A stretch of 64,000 nucleotides of DNA from an uncultured Thermoleophilia bacterium (lineage in GTDB: Bacteria; Actinomycetota; Thermoleophilia; Gaiellales; Gaiellaceae). The first letter of the stretch is position 1. Every line of letters begins with the position of its first letter. The notes beneath the pieces are model-generated. The model ran no database searches and was not told the origin of the DNA. It saw only the letters and a list, made by a program, of their open reading frames with translations. Of this stretch, positions 20,456 to 44,014 are shown piece by piece. The position numbers and the translations under genes are program-made. The stretch lies in assembly GCA_963774605.1 (NCBI GenBank), contig CAVZFN010000002.1, positions 300,398 through 364,397 on the forward strand. The letters are read 5' to 3'.

Positions 20456-20457
20456 CC

Positions 20458-22382
20458 TTGGCGCTCGCGGCTGAGGAACGGGAGTACCGGCTCGCCTCCG
20501 CGCCCGTCGCCCTCGGCGTTTCCGCCGCGGTCGCTGCCGGGACGTTTCTGCTTGCCCGCCAGAACGGCGGCTACGACCTCACCACGTGGTCGACCGCGGC
20601 AGTGCTGACCTGGTGGACAGTTGCGCTCGTGGCAGCGCTCGATCTCGCGCCCAACCTGTCTCAGGCGCGCGCCGCGATCTTGCCCGGTGCAGCGCTTGGC
20701 CTCTTCGCAGCCTGGACCGGGCTCTCTGCCGTGTGGCGGCGAGCTGCCGAACAGGCGTATGTGGAGTTCGCCCGTGCCGGCCTCTATCTCGGCCTGTTCG
20801 TGCTGGGAGCGATCCTGCCGAGGCCGGGATCGCTCAGACGTTGGCGCGACGGACTTGCCTGTGGAATCGTAGGCGTCGGCGTCCTAGCGCTCGTCAGCAG
20901 GCTCGTCCCCGGCTCTTTCGGCTCCAGCACCGGCGCTGCGATCCTTCCAACGCTGACGAACCGGTTGAGTTACCCCATGGGCTACTGGAACGGGCTCGGG
21001 ATCCTGCTCGCGCTCGGCGTTCCGCTCCTGCTCGCCGCAGCCGTCGACGCGCGCCAGGCAGCGATGCGGGCGCTGCGATCGGCGCATTACCGCCGCTCGC
21101 TGCCGCGATCTACCTGACCTCATCCCGCGGGGCGGTCGCGACCGCTGCGGTCGGTGTGCTCGTGCTGCTCGCCGCGGCGCCACGTCGCTGGGCAGTGGCC
21201 GCAGCCGCGGCGGTTTCAGCACTTGGTGTCACGGCGGCCGTGGCCGTCGTTGCATCTCGACACGCGCTCACCGCGGGCACTCGCGGTAGCGACGCCGTCT
21301 CCCAGGGTCGTGCAGCGGCGGCCGCACTGATCGTTATCGCGGTCGTGGTCGGCGCCGGCTGGTTGATGCTTGAGCGTCTCGGACGACGCTTGCCGACTCC
21401 CTCTGCCAACATTGGACGAGCGGCGGTCGCGGTCGGCGTCGTTGCGGCTGGGATCGCGGTCATCCTCTCCCATCCGATCGCCCACTTCGACTCGTTTCGT
21501 CAGCCGCCGGTCGGTGTTTCGCAAGCAGCCGGCGACCCGATCGCGTCTCATCTCCTCAGCGCCAACGGCAGCGGGCGTTGGCAGTTCTGGGACGCTGCCG
21601 TTTCGGAGTTCCGCTCAAGCCCGTTCCACGGTCGCGGAGCGGGTTCGTTCGAGTCCTGGTGGGCGGCGCACGGCTCACTCCCGACTTTCGTCCGCAATGC
21701 GCACTCCCTCTACCTCGAGGTGCTGGGCGAGCTCGGTCTCGTCGGCTTGCTCCTACTCGCGGCGTTTGTCGTCACTGCGCTGGCCGTCGGCGTGCGACGC
21801 GTACGCCACAGCGACGATGCGGCAGCAGCCGCGCTGCTCGCTGCGGCCGTTGGTTTCTTGCTCGCAGCGAGCATCGACTGGATGTGGCAGCTGACCGCAG
21901 TCGGCGCTGTCGGCGTGCTCTGCCTAGGCCTACTGACAGGCTCCGGAGGTGCCCGCGCTTACCGGCCTGCCGCCTCGTCCCCGATCGCGCGCGTCGCGAT
22001 CGCCGCACTCGGCGTCGCGGCGATCGCCGCCCAAGCACCACCCCTGCTCTCGCAACTGCACCTCGACGACAGCCAGGCGGCAGCCGCCGCCGGCCGACTG
22101 AACGTTGCTGCCGCTGATGCGCGCCGGGCGCACGTCCTGCAGCCCTGGGCAGCCTCACCGCTGCTCCAGCTCGCGCTCGTCGAGGAACAGTTGGGCGACC
22201 TCGGGCAGGCCGAGGCGTCGGTACGCCGAGCGCTCGCGCGTGACAGATCCGACTGGCGGATCTGGCTGGTAGCGGCACGCATCGAGACAAAAGCCGGGCG
22301 CGTCGCGCGTGCGCGGCGCAGCCTCGCCGAGGCGCGCCGACTCAATCCCCGTTCGCCAATCTTCCAAGGAGGGCTGGGGTAA
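20458..22382 (+). CDS. O-antigen ligase/polymerase-like (Wzy_C) membrane protein with C-terminal TPR, apparent frameshift near 21050-21075
   Basis: ORF 20458..21117 holds the N-terminal helices. ORF 20586..22382 continues with ..AIYLTSSRGAVATAAVGVLVLL.. and ..FVRNAHSLYLEVLGELGLVGLLLL.. (O-antigen ligase motif). TPR-like tail: ..LVEEQLGDLGQAEASVRRALARD... Confidence 0.8.
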
Positions 22383-22465
22383 GCTCCTGTGCCTGGCGCG
22401 AACTGAAGTTATATGGTTCCGGTCCGTCGCAAACGGGAACGAGCCTTCCCACAAATCCGACGGAG

Positions 22466-23903
22466 GTGGCGCGGCAGGTGAGTCATCAAGACGCGTATGG
22501 CCGTGCACGTGCGACTTCCGCCGTGCTCGAACAGGCCGAGACGCCGATGGCGCGCACCCGCTGCTCAGACTCGCCGGCTGCACCGGCCGATTCTGGCGGG
22601 ATGCGCTGCTGCGTCGCCTGCTCGTGGTTGCGGACGTCGCGGCGCTGATGGTCGTGGTGGGGCGCTGGCCGCGTGGGGCGCGACCCGCGATGCCAAGACG
22701 CTGTTGTTCTTCATTCCGGTATGGCTCGTGCTCGCGAAGCTGTTCGGGTTGTACGACCGCGATCACCGATCGCTCCGCCACCTCACGGTTGACGATCTGC
22801 CGACGCTCGCGCTTTGGTCGTTGGCCGGCAGCGCTGCCATGACGTTGGTCTTCATCACTCTGAACAAGCCGGAGTTCATCGCCGACGATCTGGCGATCCT
22901 ATGGATCTTCACGACTACGGTGGCGCTGGTCTTTCGAGGCGCCGCTCGGTCAGTATTCAGGCGGATCACCCCTCGCGAGCGCACGCTGATCGTCGGCGAC
23001 GGGCCGCTGGCGGACGCCGCGCGGCGCAAGCTCCACCTGTTCCCGGAAATCCACGTCGAACTCGTGGGCCGACCGGAGACGTGGACAACTTCCCGAACTC
23101 ATTGCCTCGCGCCACGTCGACCGCGTCTCTTCGGCGACTGAGACGCTACGCGAGGAGACGATCGCGGAACTCCTCTCGGCGTGCCGTGCCAGCGAGACGA
23201 AGCTGAGCGTGGTTCCGCCGGCACGAGGGGTGTTCGGCACTGCGACGCACCTCGAACACATCGGCGAGATGCCGATGCTCGATTACAACACGTGGGACGT
23301 CTCTCGTTCGACGCTGCTCATGAAGCGCGCTCTCGACGTCGCCGTCGCGCTGCCGGCGTTGTCTTGCTCAGCCGGTCTTCGCGTTGATCGCGATCGCGAT
23401 CAAGCTCGACAGCCGAGGCCCGGTTTTCTTCGTTCAGATGCGTGCCGGCCTAGACGGGGCGCCGTTCAGAATGTTCAAGTTCCGAACGATGATCGCCGAC
23501 GCCGAGGGCACGCTACCGACCTCGTCCACCTCGACGAGCTGCGCGAGCCGATGTTCAAGCTCGCAACGACCCGCGCGTCACCCGCGTCGGCCGCTTCCTC
23601 CGCCAATCGAGCCTCGACGAGCTTCCGCAGCTGTTCAACGTCCTCGACGGGCGACATGAGCCTCGTAGGCCCGCGGCCGGAGCAGGTGGAGTTGGTCGAG
23701 CGCTACGAGGAGGAGCACCGGTTCCGCTGTCGGTCAAGCCCGGGCTGACCGGACCGATGCAGGTCTACGGGCGCGGCGAGTTGTCCTTCAATGAACGTCT
23801 CGCTGTTGAGCGCGACTACATCGAGAACCTGAGCCTCGGCCGCGACTTGCGCATCCTCGGCATGACGGTCGCCGTCGTCTTCATGGGCCGCGGCGCCTTC
23901 TGA
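22466..23903 (+). pseudogene. Polyprenyl glycosylphosphotransferase (WbaP/bacterial sugar transferase family), at least 7 frameshifts
   Basis: Family motifs are scattered over all three + frames: LLRRLLVVADVAALMVVV | LFFIPVWLVLAKLFGLYDRD..TLIVGDGPLA | ELIASRHVDRV..KLSVVPP..MKRALDVAVALPAL | IAIAIKLDSRGPVFFVQMRAGLDGAPFRMFKFRTM | [15 protein letters not shown] | [29 protein letters not shown] | [10 protein letters not shown] | [27 protein letters not shown]. The 5' boundary is approximate. Confidence 0.8.
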
Positions 23904-23981
23904 GACGATGAAACGTCGCGAGGCGAACGGACAGTCGGATGAGCAGTCGTACTAATTCGACGCCGGTTACCTGCGCATCGC

Positions 23982-25412: not shown

Positions 25413-25421
25413 CCAAGGGGG

Positions 25422-26691: not shown

Positions 26692-26941
26692 GGCGTTCTC
26701 TCTTGAACGCCGGCGGATTCGCGCTGGTGCTGCTCGGCGGAGCCTCGATTGCCGCCTTCGACCAATCCACGAACCTTGGCGTTTCTATCTTCAGTTTCGT
26801 CGTTGGGTCGACGGTCTTTCTGAGAGCGCCGCTCGGGACCACCGAGCGATGAAGACTCGCAGATGGTCAAGAGTCCGCTGGGGAGTGTTCGATGACCGAT
26901 CGTGCTCCTCCAAGTCGGTCCAGCGAGTTTCATGCCCAGGA

Positions 26942-28502: not shown

Positions 28503-28532
28503 TCCCTTGCCAAGGAGCCGGTGACGCGCCCG

Positions 28533-29996: not shown

Positions 29997-30011
29997 CCTC
30001 CGTCGTTGGCC

Positions 30012-30900: not shown

Positions 30901-31044
30901 CACCGTGCGATCCTACTCGGGACGATTCGAGGCCAACGCCGCCAACCTAAGGGCAGTTGCAGTCAGGCGATGAAGCGCGAATGGCGTGATCGCGATTGAA
31001 AACGCGGAACCAACTGAACCATGATTCCGCAGATCGCGTCATCC

Positions 31045-32474
31045 CTAGTGGCAGGGAATTGGCCCACCGCAACCGAAGGGTGTTGCCTGCCGGGCTGGTG
31101 GGACAGTCAGCGAAAACGGAATTGAGGTTTCCGAACTAGAGACAAGACGTGCCCGAAGGGCAGATGCAGACGGACTCGAGGCAGGCAGGCGACGTGAGAA
31201 GATCCCGTATCGATCCGTTTGCAAGCGGGCGACCGAAACCCAGTGTTGACCGACTCGTCGCTCGACGATCACCGCGCCGCTCTCGCCGAGCGGCGTCCGT
31301 CCCCATATCGCGACGCCTCGTGGGTCACGGAAGGCAACAAACGGAAACCGAAAAGCCTCGAGCGAGAATTTGGCCTTCCCGTTTACGGTGAAGAAGCCCG
31401 ACTGGTAAGGGGTCTGCCGCAGCGGGTCGTCTTGCAGCCGAAACCAGACGACTGCATCCACGCCTGCGGTCCACATCCGGAAGAGTGCCTCGGAGACCCA
31501 GCGCGCGTGGAGAGCCGAAGGGACTCCCCTGGGATCGGGCGGGTTCGAGTCCCAACTGAACTCTGTAACCCAGAACTCTGGCGATCGGGCCGACAAGATC
31601 GTTCCCCTCGCTTTGGCAGCCATAAGCAGCGCGCGCATCTCGGGAAGGTCACCGATCGAGACGTCCGCAGGACTATGGGCGTGGAAGTTGGCCCACCATT
31701 TGTGTATGGATTGTGCGCCCATATGTCGAAACGGGTGTGCTGGGAGCAAGTTTTTCGGTGAGGCGCCTGCATCGAGACGCACAGGAGGTCACTCATGAAT
31801 TTCATAGGAGCCACCACTTGGATGTCGCTCGAGTCGTGCCCAAATGGCCCGAGTGTCCCTGCGACCACACGATTGCCGGGATTGATGCCAACCACCGCAT
31901 CCGCGAAGGCGTTGACCATAAGTCGGTAGTGCGCGGGAGATACGGGCTGCCGTTCAGTCGCTGCGGCGAGAGTTCGCTCCCTGCGTTCGGTTCGTTCCAG
32001 ACCTCCCAATACTGAACACGTGGAAGCGGAACACTGCCGCCTGCTGGGACGAAGGAGCCGCTGTAACGCTTCGCAGCCGCCCGGGCAAACTGCGCGAGCT
32101 TCGCGGGAGAGGGCCAAGTTCCGGGTAATCCCACAGGCTTGCCACGCACCAGCTGCTGAGCCAGCGATGTACACCAGCGGTGCGAGGCCGCCCTGAACAG
32201 TGTCTACGACCTGTCGGTCGATCGCCTGCCAGTGGTAGGCAGGATCGTTCGGATCCTCTGGGTCAGCGGGCGAGAAGGGTGCAGCTTGGCCCCAAACAAG
32301 GAAGAGGCGAGCGATGCTGGCGCCTGCGGTATGTGCCCGGAGGACGGACGCGTCGGCCCCGTATCCACTAAACGCACCAGGATCGAGAAAACCCGTTTGG
32401 AGCGGATGACCTGCCGAAGCGTTCCCCGCCATGACCAGCGTGACGCCCAGAACCACTATCGCTACCCAACGCAT
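31045..32474 (-). pseudogene. Secreted clan GH-A glycoside hydrolase (PslG/GH39- or GH5-like), at least 3 frameshifts
   Basis: ATG at 32474 gives MRWVAIVVLGVTLVMAGNASA (signal peptide). ORF 31802..32149 carries ..RVQYWEVWNEPN (acid/base NEP motif). ORF 31045..31782 carries ..EFWVTEFSWDS (nucleophile Glu) and the C-terminal beta domain. Confidence 0.72.
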
Positions 32475-32794
32475 CGGGGCAGTGTAGGTCGGTTGACAGG
32501 CTAGACCGAGGTTCCGTGGTGTGCCATAAACTCGGCGTCTTGCGGTTCTAACGAGGAGGGGTAGGTCAGCCGTGCCGCTCGCCAGTGTGCGCCGAGGAAC
32601 GCTGAGCATCCTGACTGTGCCTCACGTCTGCATCGAGCACGAGAATGTCGTACCGCTGTACTTCGCGTTCACAGACCAAGTGGCCGGCGATGTCAGAGTC
32701 GACCGAGTGGCCCGAGCGTGTCCCCTAATCCCCGGCGTGGCACGACAACTCGACGAACGCAGTCGGGCAAGTCGCTCGGCGGGGCCTAGCGCCT

Positions 32795-33860
32795 TTGGGG
32801 ATCCAAGCAGCGCGCGAACGGGGCACGGCGTTCTTCGATGAGCTGCGAGACACGTGGCAGCGAGCGGCCGATGCTGCAGGAAGCATCGAGGTGCGCCGCT
32901 ATCGCGTCGCAGGAACGGCGCTCGAGCTGCGCTTCGCCGGCTCCGCCTTGGTGGATCCTTTGACGCGCGCGCTCGCACACCTCGCACCTCCGAGTCAAGG
33001 GGACGACTCGCTCGTCGTCTGGAGCTGGGAAAGCACGACCACCGGCACCGACATGCCACCCACACCCTGGAACGCCGACGACTACCGGGAGTACGGCACG
33101 ATCCGCGGGTTCTTCGACGAGCGCTTCCAGAGCGTCTTCCAATGGGGCTCCCACTCGCTCGTGGTCCTCGACGTCGAACGGAACGAGGCGGTCTACTGGG
33201 TCGAGACGGCCGCCCAGATCCCCTATTTCGAGATGGCCGCGCCGCTTCGGCTGGTGCTCCACGGCTGGCTGAGGACGAAGGGGATCGAGGTCGTTCACGC
33301 GGCGGCGGTCGGCTCCGACGACGGCTGCGTTCTCCTCGTCGGCAAGGCCGGCTCGGGCAAGTCGTGGACGGCTCTCGCGGCGGCGAGAAGCGACCTGCGG
33401 ATCCTGGCCGACGACTACTGCCTCGTTTCGCCCGGCACGCCGACCCGTGTCTCGAGCGTCTATAACGCCGCGAAGACCCACGCGCGACGCGCTCGACCGC
33501 CTGCCGTTCCTCGACCAGATGGTCAGCAATCCGAGCAGGCCCGACGACGACAAGGCCGTGTACTTCCTGCAGGAGCACATGCCCGATCGCTTGCTGCTGG
33601 AGGCCGACCTGCGGGCGATCGTCATTCCCCGCCGGACGACCGCACAGACCGCCGTCCTCAGCCCCGCGCCGCGCGGAGCTGCGCTCGCGGCCCTCGCACC
33701 GAGCACCATCCTCCAGCTCCCTGCCGCCGGCGCGGAGACACTCGAACGGCTGACGGAGCTCGTCCGAAACGTGCCGACCTACTTCCTCGACGTGGGCACC
33801 GAGCTCAGCGCGATCGGGCCTGCGATCAAGCCGCTTCTCGACGCGCCGCCGATCGGCTGA
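32795..33860 (+). CDS. HprK-related serine kinase (HPr kinase C-terminal-domain-like P-loop protein), apparent frameshift near 33480
   Basis: TTG at 32795. ..GIEVVHAAAVGSDDGCVLLVGKAGSGKSWTALAAARSDLRILADDYCLV contains G-x-SG-x-GKS plus the ADD motif, as in HPr kinase and lasso-peptide kinases. The C-terminus continues in ORF 33447..33860: ..RDALDRLPFLDQMVSNP..LRAIVIPRR..PTYFLDVG..*. Confidence 0.75.
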
Positions 33861-33862
33861 CG

Positions 33863-34639
33863 ATGAGCAAGCCGACCAACTCGAAGGCGATCGTGACGCT
33901 CGCAATCGGATCCGCGTTCGCGAAGCGCTGGCATTCGATCTGCGAGCCACACTGGCGCCGCTACTGCCAGCGGCACGGCTACGACCTGATCTGCTTCGAG
34001 GAACCGCTCGACACCTCCGAGCGCGCACGTCGCCGCTCGCCGGCCTGGCAGAAGTGCCTGATCCTGGGGCAGCCGCTCGTCCAGCAATACGAGCAGGTCG
34101 TCTGGCTCGACTCCGACATCCTCCCCAACCCGGAGGCGCCGTCGGTCGCAGACTTCGTCCCGGTCGAATGCGTCGGCGCCGTGGACGAGTACTCGATGCC
34201 CACGCGCGAGATCCACAGCCGCGTCCTCGCCAAGCTGTACCGGCGCTGGGACGCGGACGGAATCGACTACGTCCACAACCTGACCGTCCCGGAGTACTAC
34301 CTCAAGTTCGACCTGCCCCCGACGTTCGACGCGGTCGTGCAGACCGGCATGCTGGTGCTCTCACCGTCGCACCACCGCGAGCTCCTCGAGGACGTGTACG
34401 CGCGGTACGAAGACAGAGGCCCCGGATTCAACTACGAGATGCGCCCGCTCTCGTACGAACTGCTCCGGGCCGGCGTGGTGAGCTGGCTCGACCCCCGCTT
34501 CAACTACATCTGGGGCCACTACAAGGCGCTGCACTTTCCGTTCCTCATCACCCATCCTCGCCACCCGCGCGCCATCGAGTGCGCGGCCCGTGCCCTCTCC
34601 GAAGTCCACTTCCTGCACTTCACCGGCAGCCTCGACGAG
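33863..34639 (+). CDS. GT-A-fold DxD glycosyltransferase domain (GT8/GT34-like); no stop codon before the next GT domain
   Basis: ATG at 33863, 2 nt after the kinase stop. MSKPTNSKAIVTLAIGSAFAKRWHSICEPHWRRYCQRHGYDLICF..SPAWQKCLILGQ..VVWLDSDILPNP (DxD).. This is the same frame as the giant track ORF 32795..36985. Confidence 0.65.
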
Positions 34640-35621
34640 ATGGCCCCTACCGCCGCAGCGCCCCTCCCTTCGCCCGAGCGCCGCCTCCCCGCGGCGCCGA
34701 CGCAGTTCGGGCTTCGCACGCCCGTCGCGCTGTTCGTCCACTCGCGACCCGAGCTGACCCGCCGGCTCGTCGAGATCGTCCGCGCTGCCCGCCCGAGCAA
34801 GGTCCTCGTGGTCGCCGACGGTCCAAACGGCCCCGAAGAGGCTGCGCTGTGCAAACAGACCCGCGAGGTTGTGGCGGCTGCCGGGTTCGAGTGCGAGGTG
34901 GTGATGAACTACTCCGACCGGCGTCTCGGCCTGAAACGCCGCGTCGAGTCCGGGCTCGACTGGGTCTTCGGCCTCGTCGATGAGGCGATCGTGCTCGAGG
35001 ACGACTGCCACCCCCACCCCACCTTCTTCGGGTTCTGTGAGGAACTGCTCACCCGCTACCGCAACGATCCACGCGTGACGACGATCTCGGGAAGCAACTT
35101 CGGACAGGGCGCGGACATCGCCGACGCGAGCTACTTCTTCTCGCGCTATCCGCTGATCTGGGGCTGGGCGACGTGGGCGCGCGCCTGGCAGCACTACTCG
35201 CCCGACCTGGCCGCCTGGCCGGAGTTCGACGAGCGCGGCTGGCTCATCGAGTTGTTCGACGACCCGCAAGCGGTGCAGTACTGGACGTACATCTTCAGCC
35301 GGCGCCGCGAGCTGGAGGACACCTGGGATGCGGGCTGGGTCTTCGGCTCATGGCTCGCAGGGGGCCTCACCGCCGTCCCGTGCCGGAACCTGGTGACGAA
35401 TCGGGGGTTCGGTGAGCATTCGACGAACACGAAGACCGAGTACCGCGGGCTCTTCTCCGATGTCCCTGCCGTCGCAGATCGAGGCACCACTCCGTCATCC
35501 GCTCCGGGTGGAGCGGAACATCGAGGCGGACGAGTTCCTCGAGGACGTCATGTTCAGCGGGAACCTCGGACGGTTGCTTCAGAGGATCAGGACGTTCCGT
35601 CCGGAGCCGGCGTCGCGGTGA
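34640..35621 (+). CDS. Second GT-A-fold glycosyltransferase domain (HlpA-like/GT2-related), frameshift near 35460; either fused to the preceding domain or a separate gene starting at ATG 34640
   Basis: ..PVALFVHSRPELTRRLVEIVRAARPSKVLVVADGPNGPEE..EAIVLEDDCHPHPTFF..ISGSNF..YPLIWGWATWARAW... The tail LPSQIEAPLRHPLRVERNIEADEFLEDVMFSG..* lies in ORF 35412..35621. Confidence 0.62.
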
Positions 35622-36985
35622 CGGTTCGCGTCACGCATGTGATCCAGGCTTTCTCGCGTGGCGGGGCGGGCCGCGCCCTGCTCTCGCTTGCCGACAGCAC
35701 CAGCACCATCGTCTCGCTCACCCGGGCGGACCCGCTGATGCGAGCCCGCGCCGAGGCAGCCGGAGCCACCGTCCTCGAAGGTGCCGCTCACCTGTCGGCG
35801 CTCGACGCCGCCGACGTCGTGCTCGTCCACTTCTGGAACACACCCGAGCTGTACGAGTTCCTGCGCGGCGGGTTGCCGCCGGTCCGTCTCGCCGTCTGGG
35901 TGCACGTCGCGGGAAGCTCGCCGCCTCAGGTGGTCACGCGCGAACTCGTCGAGCTCGGCGATGCGTTCGCGGTGACCGCTCCGGGCACCGCCAAGCTTCC
36001 CGTCTTCGCCGATCCTCCGCCGGTGATCCGCGCCGCGCCTGACCCGGCGCGGCTCGCAGGTGCGAGAGGACGCCCGCACACGGGCTTCAACGTGGGGTAC
36101 GTCGGCACACTCGACTTCGCGAAGCTGCACCCACGCTTCGCCGAGCTCTGCGCCGCGGTGGACGTCGCCGACGCCCGGTTCATCGTCTGCGGGGTCGGGG
36201 AAGCTGCGGCGACGATCGCAGCGCAGGACGACGGCCGGTTCGAGCTCCGCGGCTACGTCGAGGACATCGGGCCGGTCCTCGCCGAGCTCGACGTGTTCGG
36301 CTATCCCCTCGCACCGGGCAACTACGCCACCTCGGATCTCGCACTGCAGGAAGCGATGGCTGCCGGGGTTCCGCCCGTCGTCCTGGATCAGGGCGAGCCC
36401 CGCAGGCTCGTCGAACACGGAGTAACCGGGCTGGTCGCGCGCGACGAAGCCGACTATCCGCGGGCGATCGAGTACCTCTGCGCCAATCCGGCCGAGCGCC
36501 TCCGGCTCGGAGAGAACGCGCGAGCGCGCGCGCAACTCCGGCAGCCGGCCGACGTGGCGGAGGAGTGGACGTCGCTCTTCGCCGAGTTGCTCGAGCAGCC
36601 GAAGGTGTCGCGCGACGCCCGCCCGCTCTCGGGAGCGCAGGCGTTCGTCGCGTCGCTCGGCGACACCGCGCCGGAGTTCGCAGCAGGCCTCACCGCCGTA
36701 ACCGAGGAAGAGGCGCTCGAAGCTGAAGCTCGGATCGCCGGCGCACCGCCTGCGCTGGTGAGCGCGTCCGGCGGGGGGATCCTCCACTACCGCCGTCATT
36801 ACCCGAACGACGCGCACCTACGGCTCTGGTCCGCGCTGGTCCTGGAGGCCGCGGGGAAGCACGTCTTCGCCGCGGGCGAGCTCGCGGCCGCGCGACAGCT
36901 GGGTTGCGACGCCCCGCGGGTGAGTCGCTATCTGGCGCGCGCGGAGAAGGCGCTCCGCGTGAGGGAAACGGCTCGCGCAGGATGA
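35618..36985 (+). CDS. GT-B-fold (family 4-like) glycosyltransferase with a ~110-aa C-terminal extension
   Basis: GTG at 35618 forms a GTGA overlap with the upstream stop. VTVRVTHVIQAFSRGGAGRAL.. then ..YPLAPGNYATSDLALQEAMAAGVPPVVLDQGEPRRLVEHGVTGLVA (E-x7-E-like GT4 region). Confidence 0.78.
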   Translation: MTVRVTHVIQAFSRGGAGRALLSLADSTSTIVSLTRADPLMRARAEAAGATVLEGAAHLSALDAADVVLVHFWNTPELYEFLRGGLPPVRLAVWVHVAGSSPPQVVTRELVELGDAFAVTAPGTAKLPVFADPPPVIRAAPDPARLAGARGRPHTGFNVGYVGTLDFAKLHPRFAELCAAVDVADARFIVCGVGEAAATIAAQDDGRFELRGYVEDIGPVLAELDVFGYPLAPGNYATSDLALQEAMAAGVPPVVLDQGEPRRLVEHGVTGLVARDEADYPRAIEYLCANPAERLRLGENARARAQLRQPADVAEEWTSLFAELLEQPKVSRDARPLSGAQAFVASLGDTAPEFAAGLTAVTEEEALEAEARIAGAPPALVSASGGGILHYRRHYPNDAHLRLWSALVLEAAGKHVFAAGELAAARQLGCDAPRVSRYLARAEKALRVRETARAG

Positions 36986-38055
36986 CCGAGTTGCTCGCGA
37001 GCTCGTACGTCAAGCGCCGCGGCGGCCTCGGCGACCTTCCCAATCGCCTGCGCGCCGAGGACTGCACGATCGCGTACATGGGCGCGAGCGTGACGGCGCA
37101 GAGGGACGGCTTTCGGCCACGCCTCCACGAGCTGGTGTGTCGGGACACCCGGCGCAATCACCGCGCCGTAGCGGCAGCGCTGGGTGCGACGGGCGCGATC
37201 ACCGGCGTGTGCCTGATGGACGACCTCGTCCTGTCGCATCACCCCGACCTCGCGTTCGTCGAGTACGCAACCTCCGACGTGGCGGGGACGACGCCGCTTC
37301 GCGAGCTCGCGCCCGTGCTCGAGGGGATCGTCGGGAAGCTGCGCGACGCGGGTTGCGAGCCGTGCTTCCTCTACCTGCACCGCAGTGACGTCGACCTCGG
37401 CGCGAGCGAGGTCGTATCCGTCTACGAGGACGTCGCCGAATATCACGCGGTTGCGTCGATCAACGTCGCCGACTGGATGCGAGCGGAGATCGAGCAGGGC
37501 CACCTGAGCGGCCCGACGATCCTCCGTGACGTCGTCCACACCACGCCCACCGGGTCGACGTTGACTGCCGAGACGATCCTGAAGGCGCTCGCGCAGATTC
37601 CGGCGGCGCCGCGTACTGCGGCCGTGCAACTCCGCGACGACACATATCGCCGTGCACGGATCGAGCCGGCGGAGCCCGCACTCGCCGGTGGAGGTCCTTA
37701 CGCGGGGGGCCGGTTCCGTCTCGTCACTCCGTACCTCGAGATCGACCGTCAGGGCGAGCTTCGGTTCACGCCCGAAGGTGACCTGGTCGGTCTTCTCGTC
37801 GTGCTCGGGCCGCACTCCGGCTACATCGAAGTCAATTCGACAGGCGAGTCCGTCGAGTACCTGCTCTGGGACGACGAGTGCTCATACGAGCGACTCGGGT
37901 CGGTTGTGCTCGAGCGGTTCGTGCCCGCCGGATCCGAGGTGACGATCCGCGTGATCGACCGTCTGGTCGACCACAGCGCGGCGAAACGCCCGATCGACGC
38001 GAGCGAAGCGGCGCGGCCTCGGCTCAAGCTCGCCGGGCTGATGGTGCGGTCGTGA
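36982..38055 (+). CDS. SGNH/GDSL-like hydrolase-family protein (possible polysaccharide esterase or acetyltransferase)
   Basis: ATGA overlap at 36982. MTELLASSY..CTIAYMGASVTAQRDGF (block I Ser).. ..RDVVHTTPTG (DxxH block V). 357 aa, frame intact. Confidence 0.6.
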   Translation: MTELLASSYVKRRGGLGDLPNRLRAEDCTIAYMGASVTAQRDGFRPRLHELVCRDTRRNHRAVAAALGATGAITGVCLMDDLVLSHHPDLAFVEYATSDVAGTTPLRELAPVLEGIVGKLRDAGCEPCFLYLHRSDVDLGASEVVSVYEDVAEYHAVASINVADWMRAEIEQGHLSGPTILRDVVHTTPTGSTLTAETILKALAQIPAAPRTAAVQLRDDTYRRARIEPAEPALAGGGPYAGGRFRLVTPYLEIDRQGELRFTPEGDLVGLLVVLGPHSGYIEVNSTGESVEYLLWDDECSYERLGSVVLERFVPAGSEVTIRVIDRLVDHSAAKRPIDASEAARPRLKLAGLMVRS

Positions 38056-38739
38056 GCGGCCCCTTGGTCAGCGTCGTCGTCCCGACCCTGAACGCCGCGC
38101 GCTACCTCGAGGCCGCGCTCGACAGCGTGGAGGCCCAGAGTCACGAGCACCTGGAGGTGGTGCTCGTGGACGGGGGCTCGACCGACGGCACCCTCGAGAT
38201 CGCGAGCCGCTACGAGCGCGTGCGCACGATCCGCCAGACCGGTACGGGCCTCCCCGATGCCTGGAACTGCGGGATCGCGGCCGCGTCCGGCGAGTTGATC
38301 GCCTTCCTCGACGGCGACGACCTGTGGTCGCCGGAGAAACTCGAGCGGCAGGTTCACATCCTCGAAACCGATGCCAGCCGTCGAATGCGTGATCACAAGG
38401 ATGCGATTCGTGCTCGAGCCGGGCTTCCCCATCCCTCCGGGCTTCAGAGCCCGGTTGCTCGACTCGGACCAGCTCGCGCAGATGCCGAGCTCGGTGCTCG
38501 CGCGCCGCACCGTCTTCGACCGAATCGGGACCTTCGACACGCGCTGGCCGATCGCAAGCGACATCGACTGGTTCGCCCGGGTGAAGGACTCTGGGCTCCG
38601 CGTCGCGGTCGTGCCTGACGTGCTGGTCGAGAAACGTGTCCACGATGCGAATCTCTCGACGCTCGCCGGCGCGCAGCTCAACGGCGAGCTCGTGGAGCTC
38701 CTACGCGAGTCGGTCGTGCGCCGGCGGCAAGCACCATGA
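38052..38739 (+). CDS. Short family 2 glycosyltransferase, paralogue of 41402..42049, apparent frameshift near 38370
   Basis: GTGA overlap at 38052. VSVVVPTLNAARYLEAALDSVEAQSHEHLEVVLVDGGSTDGT..AFLDGDDLWSPEKLERQVHIL. It then continues in ORF 38371..38739: ..SSVLARRTVFDRIGTFD..VLVEKRVHDANLS... It aligns by eye with the 41402 protein. Confidence 0.78.
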
Positions 38740-39651
38740 GCGCAACGCCCGCCACCGCGGGCGAGCCGCTGCGGATCGAGCGGGCGCAATTTCTCGAGGA
38801 GCTCAAGAACGCTCTCGAGAACGGCCGCGGCTACGCCGCCGGGAAGATCGGCAACACGGAGCGTGCCGTCCTGCTGTATCCGTTCGTCCGCGAGCGGTTT
38901 CAGGCTCCGCTGCAGATCCGGGCTTACGAGCTCACGCTCGCCAATCACGTCTTGCGCCACAGCGGCGTCTTCCCGACTGACGATGAGTTCCTCGGGCGCT
39001 TCAGCCGAGACTATGCGCAGGCGGTGACCCATCTCGACTGCGTCGGGCTGTGGCCGGACCGGCTCGCGGAGGACATCGAACTGGTCGCTCGCCACGGCTT
39101 TCGTGGTCACGCGATCCCGTTCACCGACCAGGAGCCCGACCGTTCGTTCCCGTCGGACGACAGCCGCTGCTACCTGCCGTTCCTCCGTGGGCGTCACGTG
39201 CTGATCGTGTGCCCCTTCGCCGGTCTTCTGCGCGAACGGGCGACGCGGGAGACGTTCGAGGCCGTCTGGAGCAAGACCGGGAAGCCCTGGTTCGAGCCGG
39301 CGAGCGTGCAGGCGCTCGAGCTCCCGTACGGCTACTCCCCGTCCACCTGGGATCGCTATCCGACCGCGCTCGACCTCTTCGCCGAGGTCCGAGGACAGAT
39401 GGACGCGCTGGACTACGACGCCGCCCTGATCGGGGCAGGGCTCCTCGGGCAGCATGCTCGCGGTGGCGGCCAAGGAACGTGGCAGAGTCGCGATCTCGCT
39501 CGGCGGGCACCTGCAGATCCTCTTCGGGGTGAACGGCCCGCGCTGGCGCGACCGGGTCAACTGGCGCCGGAAGTACTTCAACGAGGCGTGGATCGAACTA
39601 CCGGAGAGCTCCAAACCGGGAGCCGGCGAGAGCGACGAGAACTACTGGTAG
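38736..39651 (+). CDS. Hypothetical protein, possibly a GT-D/DUF1792-like transferase; apparent frameshift near 39450
   Basis: ATGA overlap at 38736. ..GYAAGKIGNTERAVLLYPF.. ..VLIVCPFAGLL.. ..YDAALIGAGLLG. It then continues in ORF 39454..39651: MLAVAAKERGRVAISLGGHLQILFGV..NYW*. The family assignment is weak. Confidence 0.5.
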
Positions 39652-40860
39652 CCGGTCGCGCACGACTCGCAGAGCACCGGCCGGCCCGAGTGCAGGCTGA
39701 CCACGAGCCGACCGCACTCGGTCGCACGCAACGACCCGGTTCGGCGCGATCCGCTTCGCGCTCTGCGCGAGCGCCACCTGCGCGGTCTTGCGGGCGAGGC
39801 GCACTGCGAGCTGTCCTCGCGTTCGCACCCCGAAGTGCTCCTGCAGAAACTCGGTCGGGCGAACCGAGCGGTCGATGCGCGACCGTCGGACGTAGTCGTC
39901 GAGGATCACCGGCAGCCAGTTCCCGCCGCCCATCGGCTGCAGCGCGGCTCTGGAGGCCCATCGCTCGAGCAGGCCCTTCGGTGCGGCCGCCAGCCGCTCG
40001 AGGACACCGTCCGGCAGCGGAAACTCGACTGCGCCGACGAGGCATTCGAGCGCAGCCGCGAGCGTGGCTGTCACGCCCCGGCGCGTCGCCTCGGCGACGA
40101 GGCGATCCCAGTCGAGATCGGTCCCTGCCGACCGCTCGATGACAACCGCGTCGGCCAGCCAACGCACGGGTGGCACGGGGTTCCAGCGCGCGCCGTGCAC
40201 CGCGACGTGGAGCAGCTGGTCGGCGGGGCAAAGGACGCGCGTCGGCACGTTCAAGAGCTCGATCTCGACGGCGGCCGACCAGAACTCGTCATCGGACGCA
40301 GCCTGGGCGAGCGCGTAGCGGTGCAAGTCGAGAGAGACGCCGCCCTCGCGGTGCTGGAGATGCTCCGCGTGCACCGCCCTGAGCCCACCGGTCGGGATGT
40401 AATCGCGCCCGGCAGCCCAACCCGCACCCCTCAGCACCGTGATCGCACGCTCGAAGTCGCGCCGGGGCACCAGCACGTCGATGTCCTCCATCGGCCGCAC
40501 ACCGTCGTCGCGGTAGTGCGCGATGCTGAGGGCAATTCCCTTGAGCACCAACGTCGGGACTCCCGCGTCGCCGAGCGCACCGAGCGCCTCGGCGGCCCGC
40601 TTGAAGAGCAGCTGGTTGTGGACCCACGCACCTCGGTAAGCGCCCTTGAGCTTGGCGAGATCCAACTCGTCCAACCCCGCCGAACGCAGGTTGCTGTAGA
40701 CGAGTGGGAACAGGCGGAGCGATGCCGAGTCCGCGGTCTCCAGAGCATTGCCGGCCCGCCAACGCTCCCAGGCTGTGCGCGCGGTATCCGCGTCGAGCAG
40801 CGCCGCGCGCAGCAGCAGAATCTGGTCCTCGGTGGGCCAGCAGCCGCCAGGCACCAACAT
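39598..40860 (-). CDS. NTP_transf_5-type (PF14907-like) nucleotidyltransferase-family protein
   Basis: ATG at 40860 (MLVPGGCWPTEDQILLLRAALLD..). Hallmark segment VPTLVLKGIALSIAHYRDDGVRPMEDIDVLVPRRDFERAITVLRGAGW. The 5' 560 nt of the longer track ORF is antisense to the PqqD gene and is discarded. Confidence 0.78.
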   Translation of the reverse strand: MLVPGGCWPTEDQILLLRAALLDADTARTAWERWRAGNALETADSASLRLFPLVYSNLRSAGLDELDLAKLKGAYRGAWVHNQLLFKRAAEALGALGDAGVPTLVLKGIALSIAHYRDDGVRPMEDIDVLVPRRDFERAITVLRGAGWAAGRDYIPTGGLRAVHAEHLQHREGGVSLDLHRYALAQAASDDEFWSAAVEIELLNVPTRVLCPADQLLHVAVHGARWNPVPPVRWLADAVVIERSAGTDLDWDRLVAEATRRGVTATLAAALECLVGAVEFPLPDGVLERLAAAPKGLLERWASRAALQPMGGGNWLPVILDDYVRRSRIDRSVRPTEFLQEHFGVRTRGQLAVRLARKTAQVALAQSAKRIAPNRVVACDRVRSARGQPALGPAGALRVVRDRLPVVLVALAGSRFGALR

Positions 40861-40938
40861 GCGGGCGACCCTACCGTCGCGAGCCACAACGTTGCGGTAT
40901 AAGTTTTCGGCCCGCCCCAGGTCGAGGAGGAGCGCATT

Positions 40939-41394
40939 TTGACGGACGCCCGGTTCAAGGTGAACAGCCCACCGGTGATTCATCAGACACTCGACGGCGA
41001 GGTGATCGTCGTCAATCTCGACACAGGGACCTACTACAGCTTCGACGGGGTGGCCGCCGAGATCTGGGCCGCAGCCGAGCGAGGTCTGACGGTCGCGGAG
41101 GTGGTGTCGGAGGCCGCCGAGCTGCACGGCGCATCCAGCACTGCCGCATCGCCCGCCGTCACCCGCTTCCTCGCAGAACTCGCGCGTGAAGAGCTGATCG
41201 TCAGCGTCAACGGCTCCGAGCCGTTCACCGCCCCTGACACCGTCGACGGCGCGTCCCACGAGAGCTTCCCCGAGCCGCTGCTCAACAAGTACACGGACAT
41301 GCAGGAGCTGCTGCTGCTCGATCCGATTCACGACGTCGACGAGCGCGGCTGGCCCAACGCCGCCGCGGCCGGCCAAGACACGACCGGCTCCTAA
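40939..41394 (+). CDS. PqqD-family (RiPP recognition element-like) protein with a ~60-aa acidic C-terminal extension
   Basis: TTG at 40939, with GAGGAGGAG 10-18 nt upstream. ..VIHQTLDGEVIVVNLDTGTYYSFDGVAAEIWAAAERGLTVAEVVSEAAELHG..VTRFLAELAREELI is the PqqD fold pattern. The extension is ..FPEPLLNKYTDMQELLLLDPIHDVDERGWP... Confidence 0.78.
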   Translation: MTDARFKVNSPPVIHQTLDGEVIVVNLDTGTYYSFDGVAAEIWAAAERGLTVAEVVSEAAELHGASSTAASPAVTRFLAELAREELIVSVNGSEPFTAPDTVDGASHESFPEPLLNKYTDMQELLLLDPIHDVDERGWPNAAAAGQDTTGS

Positions 41395-41401
41395 CCTCGG
41401 C

Positions 41402-42049
41402 ATGGACGTCAGCGTCGTCATTCCGGTCCGGAACGGCGAGCATTTCCTGGCGGAGGCGATCGAGAGCGTGCTCGGGCAATCGAGCCCGCCCCTCGAGGTG
41501 ATCGTGGTGGACGACGGCTCGTCCGACTCGACGTCCGAGGTCGCGCAGGCATTCGGTGCGCGCGTGCGTTATGTCTCGCAGCCGCCGCTCGGCGTAGCAG
41601 CCGCCCTCAACTGCGGGATCGGCCTCGCGCGCGGAGAACTGCTCGCGTTCCTCGACGCGGACGACGTCTGGCGGCACGACAAGCTCGAGCTGCAGCTCGC
41701 GGCGTTTCGCGCCGACCCCGGGCTGGACGCCGTGTTCGGCCACCTCACGAACGTCGGCGAAGCAGGGGATTCTCGCGAGACCTTCGCGGGCTGGAGCAGT
41801 GGCACGATGCTGATCCGCGCGGAAGCGTTTGCGCGCGTCGGGCCATTCAGGAATTGGCGTCTCGGCGAGTTCATCGAGTGGTACGCACGCCTCGTCGACC
41901 TCGGCCTCCTGCTCCTCATGCTGCCGGAGGTCGTGCTCCTTCGACGCGTGCACGACGCGAACATGGGCGTCCAGCGCCGTCACGAGCGGAGCGAGTACGC
42001 CCGGGTCCTCAAGGCCGTCCTCGACCGGCGCCGAGCGGAACACCTGTGA
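41402..42049 (+). CDS. Short family 2 glycosyltransferase (intact)
   Basis: Track ORF of 215 aa: MDVSVVIPVRNGEHFLAEAIESVLGQSSPPLEVIVVDDGSSDST..LAFLDADDVWRHDKLE.. Confidence 0.85.
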   Translation: MDVSVVIPVRNGEHFLAEAIESVLGQSSPPLEVIVVDDGSSDSTSEVAQAFGARVRYVSQPPLGVAAALNCGIGLARGELLAFLDADDVWRHDKLELQLAAFRADPGLDAVFGHLTNVGEAGDSRETFAGWSSGTMLIRAEAFARVGPFRNWRLGEFIEWYARLVDLGLLLLMLPEVVLLRRVHDANMGVQRRHERSEYARVLKAVLDRRRAEHL

Positions 42050-43747
42050 TGCGTTCGCTCCGCCCCTTCTTGCCCTTCCTTCGTGGCTCACAGCGGCGGT
42101 TGCTTCTGAGCCTCGTGGCCGCGCTCGTACAAGCCGGCCTGCTCGTCGTGATCGGCCTCCTCGTCCGCCGTGCCTTCGACCAGAACATTCCCGACAACGA
42201 CGTCGGAGCTCTCGCTCTCACGGGTGCCGCGATCCTCGGTGTGGCGCTCGCCGCCGCCGGTCTCACCGTCTGGATGCGCTATCTCGTCCTGGGCGCCGTC
42301 AAGGATGCGATCAGCCGCCTGCGGGTCGCGCTCCTCGAGAAGCTGAATGCGCTCCCGACAGCGTGGTTCGATCGCGCCGACGGCGGCAGCCTCCACGCAA
42401 CGATCGTGCAGGACAGCGAGCGTCTCGATGTCGTCGCCAACAGCGTCGCCGCCCAGGCTGCGCCGGCCCTGGTGATCGGCTTCGGGCTCAGCCTCGCCCT
42501 GCTCGTCATCAATCCGCTGCTGTTCGGGATCCTCGCGCTTTCCCTGCCGGTGCTCGCTGTTCTGACGCGGCGATTCGACGGTGTCGTCAGGCGGCGCACG
42601 CGTACCTGGCAGCTCAGCTTCGACCGCTTCTCGACCCGCGTCCTCTTTGCCATTCTCGCGCGTCCGCTGATCGTGACCCAGGCCGCCGAGGAGATCGAAC
42701 TGGAGGAAGGTCGTACAGAGGCGGTCGCACTCAGCGACGCGGGCCGTTCGATGGCGTGGCTGCACAGCGTGTATGCGCAGCTCCACGGCGCGGTCGCGAC
42801 TTTCGCCGGCGTGATCGTGCTGGTCGTCGGCGGCGCTTCAGTCGCTCGAGGGACGATGTCGATCGGCTCGCTGGTCGCCTTCTACACGCTCCTCGCGCTG
42901 TTGCGGGCGCAGGGCAACGCCGTTCTGACGACGATCCCGCAGGTCATCTCCGGCCGAGAATCGCTGGCGCGGCTCGCGGCGATCCTCGATGCGCCCGACC
43001 GGCACCCCTACCACGGGAGCCGAACACCGTCGCTGCATCACTCACTCGCCTTGCGGAACGTGGACTTCGGGTACACCGACGGCACGCCTGTTCTGCAGCG
43101 GCCTGAGCTTCGAACTCGAGCGCGGTGAGTGGCTCACTCTCGTCGGCCCGAACGGATCCGGCAAAACGACGGTCGCGGCGCTCCTGCTCGGCCTGTACCG
43201 GCCCTGGCGAGGAAGCGTCGCCGCCGACGGCGTCCCGTATGACGAACTGGACCTGCAGGCCTTGCGACGCCGGATCGGCTTCGTGCCGCAGCGGCCGATC
43301 CTCTTCCCGGCCAGCATCGCCGAGAACATCGCCTACGGAACAGGCACGGTCGACGCCGCCCGGGTGCATGAGGCCGCCGAACTCGCGACGGTCGACGAGT
43401 TCGTCGACGGCCTGGACCACGGCTATCGGACTCCTGTCGGCGACGGGGGCGACCTCCTGTCCGGCGGTGAGCGGCAGCGCATCGCGATCGCGCGCGCACT
43501 CCTCCGAGAGCCCGCCGTCCTCGTTCTGGACGAGCCGACGAGCAGCCTCGACCGGCACGCGATGGCACAGGTGCTCTCGAACCTACGCGCGCTCGCTCAC
43601 GAGCCCGCCGTGCTCGTCATCACCCACGACCAGGCGTTGATCGACAGTGCCGAGCGCGTCGTCGAGCTCGGCGGCGACGCGAGCGGCTGGCGCTCCGAAG
43701 GGGCCGGTGCCTTCCGCCCCGTCGGAGGCGCCGAACCTACGGCGTAA
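42049..43747 (+). CDS. Fused TMD-NBD ABC exporter (MsbA/McjD-like), apparent frameshift near 43095
   Basis: ATG at 42049 forms a TGATG overlap. The six-helix TMD lies in ORF 41854..43128. The NBD lies in ORF 42989..43747: [38 protein letters not shown]. Confidence 0.85.
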
Positions 43748-43800
43748 GGAGCCGCGGCCCTCCCAATCCACGACGCGTAAGGACGCTCGCCAGTGCCACT

Positions 43801-43900
43801 GAATCTGATTCGGCGCAGCCGAACCAGATTCACGAGTTCGAGTTGCCAACTGCCTCCCGAGAAACTCGCGAATCAGATTCAGAGAACGAATCTGATTCGG
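43801..43900. repeat. Nested palindromic intergenic repeat, four GAAYCWGRTTC units (copy B)
   Basis: GAATCTGATTCGG (43801-13), CCGAACCAGATTC (43819-31), CGAATCAGATTC (43869-80), GAATCTGATTCGG (43888-900). The first and fourth units are exact reverse complements of the third. Same family as 10664-10732. Confidence 0.85.
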
Positions 43901-44014
43901 TCTCGGTTCGAGGGTCATTCCCGAACGCCGGCGCGCAGGTGAGCCCCCTTCCCGTGACCCAAGCCCAAGCCACGGGCGGCATTCCTGGCCCGAGCGAAGA
44001 CCCTTGCTAGCAAG

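Follow-up and report, generated by a model that had tools for sequence, protein, structure and literature searches.

The locus between positions 32795 and 43747 of a 64,000-nucleotide (nt) stretch from an uncultured Thermoleophilia bacterium (contig CAVZFN010000002.1; the whole stretch is referred to as the window) raises the question which molecule is modified by a set of genes that resembles the tailoring part of a lasso peptide cluster and is combined with glycosyltransferase (GT) genes. Analysis of open reading frames (ORFs) and domains reveals ten genes in two tightly coupled units. The first unit, on the plus strand, encodes in this order a kinase-like protein, a protein of 586 amino acids (aa), a GT4, an SGNH-like protein, a GT2 and a GT-D-like protein. 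The second, likewise on the plus strand, comprises a PqqD-family protein, a short GT2 and an ATP-binding cassette (ABC) exporter in which a transmembrane domain is joined to a nucleotide-binding domain (TMD-NBD). Between the units lies the minus-strand gene of a nucleotidyltransferase (NTase) of family PF14907, from which the second, divergent unit is separated by 78 nt. Every gene of the original prediction, which had been made from the DNA letters alone, was recovered in place. The translational coupling that it proposed holds for both operons, since their stop and start codons overlap or lie close together (TGA-2 nt-ATG, GTGA, ATGA, GTGA and ATGA in the first unit, TAA-7 nt-ATG and TGATG in the second). 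With a GC content of about 70%, the window allows the true reading frames to be resolved by a plot of GC content at third codon positions (GC3), which was used to pick them. The 1396-aa ORF at 32795-36985 is a read-through artefact across three genes and not one protein, because the coding frame leaves this ORF and comes back twice. As judged from sequence comparison, the locus is a lasso-related toolkit for peptides synthesized by ribosomes and then post-translationally modified (RiPPs) that is tied to glycosylation, without a lasso.

The part of the locus that matters most can be recognized from its distribution. A scan with an alignment of the PqqD-family protein, using one genome per species, detected relatives in at least 575 species genomes, from Thermoleophilia/Gaiellales (Actinomycetota), Chloroflexota, Nitrospirota, Acidobacteriota, Verrucomicrobiota and Cyanobacteria to Desulfobacterota, Ignavibacteria, Gemmatimonadota, Abditibacteriota and others. 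In 36 well-flanked loci (at least 6 kb upstream and at least 8 kb downstream; genes counted within 10 kb) a short GT2 is always present (36/36), followed by the kinase (34/36), the NTase (29/36) and the ABC exporter (14/36). Dual GT, GT4, SGNH and GT-D genes of the window type are found in 3-4 of the 36. As had been proposed, dozens of loci from distant parts of the phylogeny combine kinase, PqqD protein and NTase with one another and with glycosyltransferases. The "six-domain glycosylation operon", on the other hand, does not hold up as their general partner, since of its members only the short GT2s are constant. The conserved cassette, found in many phyla, thus consists of the tailed PqqD protein, the kinase, short GT2s (two or three) and the NTase; the dual GT-A, GT4, SGNH and GT-D genes are a lineage-specific expansion of it.

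Distant kinase homologues (40-62% identity) are found in compact cassettes. Gene orders include PqqD, kinase, GT2, GT2(, GT2), ABC, NTase as well as NTase (minus strand) followed by PqqD, kinase, dual GT, GT4, SGNH, GT2, GT2. Among the families checked after clustering of 85 loci were GT4s of two types, an NAD-epimerase, a GlcNAc 2-epimerase, an ABC-2 permease and a short-chain dehydrogenase; TPR protein and sensor kinase families are confined to the cyanobacterial loci. Plasmid pCRI9333.04 of Crinalium epipsammum PCC 9333 carries the cassette under the RefSeq names "PqqD family protein", "nucleotidyltransferase family protein" and "HPr kinase" only. On this plasmid (locus L090, 5896-17248) the order is PqqD, NTase, kinase, with a group II intron adjoining. 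Further genes in this locus encode an FkbM methyltransferase, an SMP-30/gluconolactonase-family protein, a TPR protein, a second PF14907-type NTase and an ABC exporter.

The PqqD-family protein matches PF05402 above the Pfam gathering threshold (GA; Table 1). Its 707 homologues are, among the matches listed, mostly about 130-170 aa long rather than about 90. The family profile matches the lasso B1 protein TbiB1 (E 2.4e-17), TfuB1 and two PqqD-family chains of the PDB, one of them named a lasso chaperone, and alignment of the family with BsfB1 gave a probability of 97%. An AlphaFold2 (AF2) model of the window protein can be superimposed on the TbiB1-leader complex 5v1v with a TM-score of 0.88 and a root-mean-square deviation of 1.1 Å (Foldseek). 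Among NCBIfam models the best match is lasso_PqqD_Bac with 38.5 bits at a cut-off of 80. By these profiles and this model, the protein is predicted to contain a leader-binding domain of the lasso-B1 type, i.e. a RiPP recognition element (RRE), with TbiB1 as its closest relative.

In addition to the RRE the protein possesses a C-terminal tail, which holds 14 of the 22 invariant columns of the family alignment and is better conserved than the RRE. In 168 unique sequences the tail starts with F-x-x-P-x-L-x-[KR]-[YFH]-[TS], with Phe in 166, Pro in 168 and Leu in 163 sequences, then Tyr in 148 (Phe in 16, His in 4) and Thr in 118 (Ser in 45, other residues in 5). It continues as D-M-Q-[ED]-L-L-[LM]-L-D-P-I-H-[ED]-V-D-E-x-G-W-P, in which D.Q..LDPIH.V is invariant, and ends with 4-16 variable residues. 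Thr119 of the window tail is encoded by nt 41293-41295. Lasso precursors carry a YxxPxL leader motif (PMC10368454); the corresponding motifs read FPEPLL-NKY in the window tail, YKKPQL in BsfA and WHKPAL-RRF in a small ORF of Azospirillum. In the AF2 model, residues 111-120 have a predicted local distance difference test (pLDDT) score of 85 and form a strand at 115-117. Residues 121-140 reach pLDDT 55-59, as expected for a segment that may fold on a partner. A search of the whole library with the 45-aa tail retrieved 1,909 cluster representatives, and most of the 150 matches listed are 140-160 aa long with the motif at the C-terminal end. In the literature searched, an RRE fused to a leader-like, near-invariant tail appears to be undescribed, as does the cassette as a unit.

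Two further interpretations of the tail were considered and rejected. A C-terminal Ser as kinase target, as in paeninodin, is found in the window protein, while the family ends in Lys, Ala, Gly, Glu, Arg, Ser, Thr or other residues. Stand-alone tail copies that might serve as free precursors were sought among the loci, which contain at most one motif each and offer no credible fission. The short tail matches inspected turned out to be C-terminal fragments of PqqD proteins, ORFs at close to the edge of a contig, or, in one case, a gene call split in two on a contig of 2.4x coverage.

The kinase, 346 homologues of which are about 350 aa long, is related to HprK by remote similarity. TIGR04352 is the best NCBIfam match of the repaired protein (29.8 bits, 19.9 before repair, cut-off 200; profile positions 98-267 of 280). 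Hpr_kinase_C (PF07475) is matched in the P-loop region only (16.7 bits, GA 33.3), and HprK of PDB entry 1jb1 with an E value of 4.6e-4 over 54 residues. For comparison with a validated lasso-precursor kinase, BsfK and the RRE BsfB1 were translated from the sequences printed in PMC10368454. Alignment of the kinase family with BsfK by hhalign gave a probability of 92.3% and an E value of 5.4e-7 over 275 columns, i.e. most of the length. The catalytic residues of BsfK are H148, G163, G166, G168, K169, S170, D186 and D187 (PMC10368454). In the window kinase they are matched by H168, G183, G186, G188, K189, S190, D206 and D207, which are conserved in the family alignment, and the spacing H-(15)-GxxGxGKS-(15)-DD is identical in both enzymes; the P-loop GKAGSGKS is encoded by nt 33341-33364. 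Moreover, the family aligns with the 301-aa kinase of a lasso cluster of Azospirillum oryzae with a probability of 97%. The kinase is thus a remote homologue of BsfK over most of its length.

The NTase belongs to NTP_transf_5 (PF14907). Its predicted catalytic DID motif comprises residues 126-128 (nt 40477-40485), and a Pol-beta-type metal site, KG..DxD, is present in 41 of 50 family members; searching the PDB with the NTase sequence gave no match. The intact orthologue has 405 aa and would end near position 39642 in the window. Intact orthologues end in a Cys-rich segment, CxxC...CxxC (ACTECGRLVVSLHSGRPVLCESCATGYQ; L001 16478-16600), possibly a zinc ribbon; in the window (39598-39723) the frameshift has removed this segment. 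When intact, the gene converges with the GT-D gene and shares about 10 nt with it. Distant homologues of the NTase were detected by tblastn of plasmids inside annotated lasso clusters that also carry glycosyltransferases. On a plasmid of Deinococcus psychrotolerans (L091, 6734-8074) a 446-aa "lasso peptide biosynthesis B2 protein" contains an NTase-like region (33% identity over about 125 residues), which suggests that NTase and B2 may be fused in some lasso clusters.

Taken together, the RRE, the kinase and the NTase resemble the accessory enzymes of phosphorylated lasso peptides. The clusters of paeninodin (pade), pseudomycoidin (psm) and bsf of Bradymonas sediminis share with the window a B1 RRE, an HprK-like kinase (K), an NTase (N) and an ABC exporter (D). 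In the psm cluster, PsmK phosphorylates the C-terminal Ser of pseudomycoidin, and PsmN, an "uncharacterised nucleotidyltransferase", is needed for the addition of one or two hexoses to the phospho-Ser (PMC6993621). In the bsf cluster, BsfB1 strongly stimulates BsfK (PMC10368454). However, pade, psm and bsf also contain a cyclase (C), a B2 protease and a separate precursor (A), all of which are missing from the window cassette. Whereas their leaders carry YxxPxL, the window carries FxxPxL as a C-terminal extension of the RRE, and the segment behind it hardly varies from phylum to phylum. Short GT2s, two or three of them, are obligatory partners here, and the kinase is only remotely similar (hhalign E 5e-7).

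Lasso clusters with glycosyltransferases provide a second comparison. In Azospirillum oryzae (NZ_CP054615.1) a small ORF is followed by an AsnB-like gene, B2, the 301-aa kinase, PqqD, a methyltransferase, an NTase, a GT and two GT4s; plasmid pSMS3-2 of Antarctobacter heliothermus carries a GT, a GT2, an NTase, an ABC gene, an Asn-synthase-related gene, an HprK-like protein, PqqD and B2. With or without an ABC gene, these clusters share with the window the kinase (probability 97%), PqqD (probability 97.6%), a PF14907-like NTase (28-30% identity) and GT2 or GT4 genes. In contrast to the window cassette they keep the Asn-synthetase-like cyclase and the B2 protease, and their PqqD proteins have about 90-100 aa and no tail. 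The small ORF of Azospirillum is precursor-like, with WxxPxL and a C-terminal Ser. By these homologies, the window cassette comprises K + B1 + N + GT (+D) of such clusters and lacks C, B2 and A. The homologies to TbiB1, to BsfK and to NTases of lasso clusters also substantiate the earlier assignment of kinase, PqqD protein and NTase to a RiPP-type toolkit, more precisely one of lasso type. The statement that neither of the chemistries considered had been described was wrong for the kinase/NTase pair, as phospho-glycosylation by such a pair, PsmK and PsmN acting on pseudomycoidin, is already published (PMC6993621).

Three other systems invite comparison. The first is the HPr-rel-A cassette, which we take to consist of the HprK-related kinase A of TIGR04352, a PqqD-family chaperone and an NTase, with unknown function. 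It has the same three protein types as the window, where the PF14907 NTase adjoins PqqD. Membership, as suggested by the original prediction, is not borne out, given the low TIGR04352 score of the kinase and the lack of a TIGR04353 match of the PqqD protein at E<=0.01. Since neither cut-off is reached, the cassette rather represents a sister system. Among the profiles proposed for this comparison, PF14907 and PF05402 are thus matched above GA, and TIGR04352, TIGR04353 and PF07475 are not reached. Literature searches on PF14907, NTP_transf_5, "HprK-related", TIGR04352 and TIGR04353 returned no paper describing the cassette. The second system, mycofactocin, with the RRE MftB and the GT2 MftF, follows a similar logic only, an RRE-dependent peptide product being glycosylated by a GT2. 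The short GT2s score 70.7 bits with TIGR03965 and 69.2 bits with TIGR04283, far below the cut-offs of these MftF-type models, and the cassette contains neither a radical-SAM enzyme nor an MftA-like precursor. The third, matriglycan of alpha-dystroglycan, is a protein-linked glycan that needs the kinase POMK, the nucleotidyltransferase ISPD and the dual GT LARGE1. The dual GT of the window matches LARGE1 by fold, but kinase and NTase are non-homologous and the acceptor chemistry differs, so that this is a pure analogy.

How might such a cassette work? Tentatively, and with less than even confidence, we propose that it goes back to the B1, K, N and D genes of phosphorylated lasso peptides or to an ancestor common to both, and that the PqqD protein presents its own tail for phosphorylation and for the building of a glycan. 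The PqqD-like protein would first bind its C-terminal FxxPxL motif in the RRE groove in the manner of a lasso leader. The adjacent segment, K-Y-[T/S]-D-M-Q...DPIH.VDE.GWP, would thereby be shown to the kinase, which may phosphorylate the conserved Thr/Ser. By analogy to the PsmN-dependent hexosylation, the PF14907 enzyme could then place the first sugar on the phosphate. The GT2s would lengthen the glycan, to which the Thermoleophilia lineage might add an elaboration by dual GT-A, GT4, GT-D and SGNH proteins, and the ABC transporter, where present, would export or flip the product. The phosphoglycosyl-peptide envisaged earlier is plausible within this scheme. Its strictest form, in which the tailed PqqD protein is a self-presenting substrate that unites RRE, leader and core, is phosphorylated on Thr/Ser and primes a phosphodiester-linked glycan, is rather doubtful.

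The enzymes assigned to the elaboration step are encoded by the first unit (Table 1). Its 586-aa protein gave no sequence match in Pfam, NCBIfam or the PDB. It has 258 homologues of about 560-600 aa that are 45-86% identical, one of them with a precomputed Pfam match to PF01501. The N-terminal domain is GT8/GT34-like with the motif WLDSD and the C-terminal domain GnT-I-like with LEDD; in the family WxDxD and LEDD are invariant. The AF2 model of an orthologue (P0241, 86% identical; pLDDT 89.5, predicted TM-score 0.86) matches GnT-I, LARGE1, LH3, PBCV-1 A64R, POMGnT1, K4CP, heparosan synthase 2 (HS2) and WbbM in Foldseek searches. These fold matches indicate a bifunctional enzyme with two GT-A domains, broadly in agreement with the "GT8/34-like + GT-A" call made from the DNA. 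The modelled fold of this essentially unannotated family resembles that of bifunctional GTs that polymerise, LARGE1, K4CP and heparosan synthase among them.

The GT4, both GT2s and the ABC_membrane and ABC_tran domains of the exporter score above the Pfam gathering thresholds. The first GT2 owes its Glycos_transf_2 match (109 bits) to the N-terminal half; its C-terminal half is encoded in another frame. The GT-D-like protein passes the threshold of PF22882 only after repair (39.7 bits, GA 27) and has intact 304-aa orthologues. Orthologues of the 357-aa SGNH protein show the same Lipase_GDSL_2 match, which is unmarked in the orthologue of L004. For the ABC exporter (ABC_membrane 86.7 bits, ABC_tran 114.9 bits), the best NCBIfam matches are MsbA-related, HepA-family and CydDC models, all below cut-off, and a C39 peptidase domain is not among its Pfam matches.

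Table 1. Features of the cassette locus and its surroundings (window coordinates; lengths of genes marked "repaired" are given after removal of the extra base)
Feature	Position	Strand	Length	Remarks
Wzy_C-type polymerase/ligase and fragmented Bac_transf	20586..23896	+		upstream lower-GC variable region
HprK/lasso-kinase-like P-loop kinase	32795..33860	+	354 aa (repaired)	extra base at ~33483 splits the frame
Bifunctional GT, two GT-A domains	33863..35621	+	586 aa (repaired)	extra base at ~35478
GT4 glycosyltransferase	35618..36985	+	455 aa	Glyco_trans_1_4 60.4 bits, Glycos_transf_1 42.5 bits; GTGA start overlap
Probable SGNH/GDSL hydrolase or esterase	36982..38055	+	357 aa	Lipase_GDSL_2 26.6 bits, below GA 32.9; ATGA overlap
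Short soluble GT2	38052..38739	+	~228 aa (repaired)	extra base at ~38375
GT-D-fold-like protein	38736..39651	+	304 aa (repaired)	extra base at ~39446
NTP_transf_5 (PF14907) nucleotidyltransferase	39598..40860	-		PF14907 146 bits (GA 31.2); C-terminus altered by extra base at ~39723
PqqD-family protein, predicted lasso-B1-type RRE with tail	40939..41394	+	151 aa	PF05402 44.1 bits (GA 23.4)
Tail motif FPEPLLNKYTDMQELLLLDPIHDVDERGWP	41266..41355	+	residues 110-139 of PqqD protein	leader-like FxxPxL, then invariant segment
Second short GT2	41402..42049	+	215 aa	Glycos_transf_2 112 bits; type present in every related cassette
ABC half-transporter (TMD-NBD)	42049..43747	+	~565 aa (repaired)	extra base at ~43099

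The cassette is embedded in carbohydrate genes. Upstream of it, Wzy_C is matched with 58.6 bits at 20586-22379, and a Bac_transf fragment lies at about 23.2-23.9 kb. Three related loci from metagenomes (L001-L003) were identified through homologues of the repaired kinase. Like the window, they carry Wzy_C and an initiating Bac_transf in one locus with the cassette, and blastn of 23159-23896 against their Bac_transf genes gave about 70%. Homology to L001 sets in sharply at 32764; close relatives thus differ in what lies upstream of the kinase. The region 19300-32760 has a GC content of 57-69%, compared with about 70% elsewhere, and weak codon periodicity; it holds Wzy_C, the fragmented Bac_transf, a GT2 fragment and many broken ORFs and has the look of a variable island for surface polysaccharide. 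Downstream of the ABC gene, at a distance of about 0.9 kb and beyond a small minus-strand gene, a fusion of an AT3 acyltransferase with an SGNH domain is encoded (44671-46638; Acyl_transf_3 91 bits, SGNH 83 bits). This is presumably the OafA-type architecture of glycan O-acetyltransferases.

Several observations weigh against self-presentation of the tail. None of its hydroxyl residues is strictly invariant, Tyr being replaced by Phe or His in 20 of the 168 sequences and Thr/Ser by Asn, Val, Ala or Asp in 5. The C-terminal residue of the PqqD protein is variable, unlike the C-terminal Ser of classical lasso kinase targets. Only 4 residues separate FxxPxL from the candidate Thr, compared with about 15 in BsfA and more in the systems with a C-terminal Ser. 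As to docking of the tail in the RRE groove, the AF2 model was read for pLDDT and secondary structure only, and the link between the NTase and PsmN is drawn through distant homologues in lasso clusters, not through a direct comparison with PsmN or BsfN. Half-size ABC exporters would not usually be expected to carry a 15-kDa glycoprotein, and a conserved protease is lacking. Finally, the accessory genes (GT4, epimerases, ABC-2 permease) are without exception carbohydrate genes and the window cassette abuts the Wzy/Bac_transf locus and the AT3-SGNH acyltransferase; these genes and neighbours would fit a glycan or lipid-linked substrate equally well. Because of these weak points, two other explanations are kept in play.

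According to the first, which is possible, if doubtful, the substrate of the cassette is a glycan or lipid-linked sugar instead of a peptide. The GT2s and other GTs would build a polysaccharide of the cell surface or a polyprenyl-linked oligosaccharide, which kinase and NTase would phosphorylate or decorate with a phospho-sugar; the tailed PqqD protein would act only as scaffold or regulator that brings the enzymes together, and the ABC or ABC-2 transporter would flip or export the glycan. Besides the lack of an invariant hydroxyl residue in the tail, this explanation draws on the recurrent accessory genes, which are all carbohydrate-related (GT4s, NAD-epimerase, GlcNAc 2-epimerase, a Wzm-like ABC-2 permease). 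It also draws on the position of the cassette beside Wzy_C, Bac_transf, GT4s, an epimerase and the AT3-SGNH acyltransferase in the window and its close relatives, although many compact cassettes lie outside any polysaccharide locus. The dual GT-A protein resembles the polymerising LARGE1, K4CP, HS2 and WbbM, and the best matches of the ABC protein include lipid and glycan exporters of the MsbA, PglK and HepA types. However, RRE and kinase are specifically related to lasso proteins that act on peptides, and the ultra-conserved leader-like tail argues that the system reads a peptide. In addition, we know of no HprK-fold sugar or lipid kinase and of no PF14907 sugar-1-phosphate nucleotidyltransferase.

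The second explanation, an unlikely one, assumes a RiPP-like pathway whose precursor is encoded elsewhere. A free peptide of the YxxPxL type would be bound by the RRE, phosphorylated, glycosylated and exported, and the tail would serve as a docking or autoinhibitory element. The homologies to lasso B1, K, N and D are accounted for in the same way as by self-presentation, the ABC exporter is of a general small-peptide type in many loci, and the low pLDDT of residues 121-140 is what a segment folded on its partner would show. RiPP precursors are, on the other hand, almost always clustered with their RRE. No credible small precursor ORF was found in the window or conserved across related loci, the search covering the surroundings of about 80 loci from many phyla. 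Nothing convincing as a small ORF emerged in the three intergenic regions singled out by the original prediction (32475-32794, 40861-40938 and 43748-44014). Likewise, the cassette loci contain no separate precursor and no second copy of the tail motif, the leader-like FxxPxL being present only in cis on PqqD, where it would compete with a leader offered in trans. Conserved small ORFs upstream of PqqD or elsewhere in the loci were sought and dismissed, except for a 20-aa ORF, MNGETPSTTMSDEKFL(P/T)(A/T)QI. It occurs upstream of PqqD in the closely related Dolichospermum-type loci L062, L066 and L070 and is the sole recurrent small ORF seen there, too narrowly distributed to be judged.

Another question is whether the locus is alive at all. 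As read, six of the ten genes are broken (kinase, dual GT, GT2, GT-D, C-terminus of the NTase and ABC) by single extra bases relative to L001, L002 and L003 (positions in Table 1). In the kinase, the 586-aa gene, GT2, GT-D and ABC the frame jump is visible by GC3; the break near the C-terminus of the NTase is apparent only from comparison with the related loci. If the frameshifts were real, the locus would be a decaying cluster, the dead remnant of a lasso or polysaccharide cluster. This is very improbable, since all lesions are +1 insertions, with no deletions or nonsense changes, and GC3 remains at 0.85-0.95 on either side of each of them. L001 is 98.7% identical over window positions 32764-43865; L002 is 87.7% and L003 86.9% identical. 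L001 and L002 encode intact proteins at each of the six sites. The L001 kinase is truncated by a separate 2-base gap near window position 33058, and its other genes were called intact. L003, similarly a long-read assembly (a metagenome-assembled genome of an uncultured Thermoleophilia bacterium), has dozens of private insertions of this kind over 11 kb. The insertions do not lie in homopolymers and are private to each long-read assembly (window, L003, L010). Furthermore, intact orthologues were found for every gene of the locus, and the family is strongly conserved in the species genomes counted above. Pseudogenisation was therefore rejected, the six insertions being absent from L001-L003. Since all six are +1 and codon bias is undiminished on both sides, they are most likely long-read assembly errors; the cassette would be intact, and its genes are taken as functional. 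Frame changes without stop codons also occur in window genes outside the locus, e.g. at about 50.2-53.6 kb, and errors of a single base are therefore probable throughout the window.

As to the lasso core genes, the reported absence of cyclase, protease and precursor could be extended beyond the locus. Among the ORFs of the 64-kb window that were scanned with Pfam, none had a match to an Asn_synthase or transglutaminase-type domain, the gene tables for the 10-kb flanks of L001-L009 list no lasso cyclase or B2 protease, and clustering of all ORFs of the 85 loci gave no conserved cyclase, protease or small ORF. Genes like B1, K, N and D are typically found as accessories in clusters for phosphorylated lasso peptides (PMC6993621, PMC10368454, PMC7533575), which might point to an ordinary lasso cluster with its cyclase, B2 protease and precursor in the immediate surroundings of the locus. 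By these results this is the most improbable explanation of all.

The genes of the cassette are at present annotated just as "PqqD family protein", "HPr kinase" and "nucleotidyltransferase family protein", and RiPP mining programs may flag them without a product. Since strains that have names and are apparently in culture harbour the cassette (Oscillatoria sp. PCC 10802, Anabaena and Dolichospermum strains of the UHCC collection and Chamaesiphon polymorphus CCALA 037, besides the plasmid of Crinalium epipsammum PCC 9333), the proposal that the PqqD protein presents its own tail is directly testable. To our knowledge, pseudomycoidin is the one published case of phospho-glycosylation, and the role of its PF14907 enzyme is unresolved; if the proposal is true, the cassette would offer a genetic handle on the phospho-glycosylation of peptides and proteins in bacteria. 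An RRE that carries a leader-like motif in cis together with a near-invariant peptide is an unusual architecture and bears on how RREs hand substrates over to enzymes. If self-presentation holds, the lasso-tailoring module of RRE, kinase and NTase would have an independent and far wider life outside lasso peptides, always tied to glycosyltransferases, and would represent a widespread bacterial system for protein phosphoglycosylation or for protein-primed glycans that evolved from lasso-tailoring enzymes and is present in at least 575 species.

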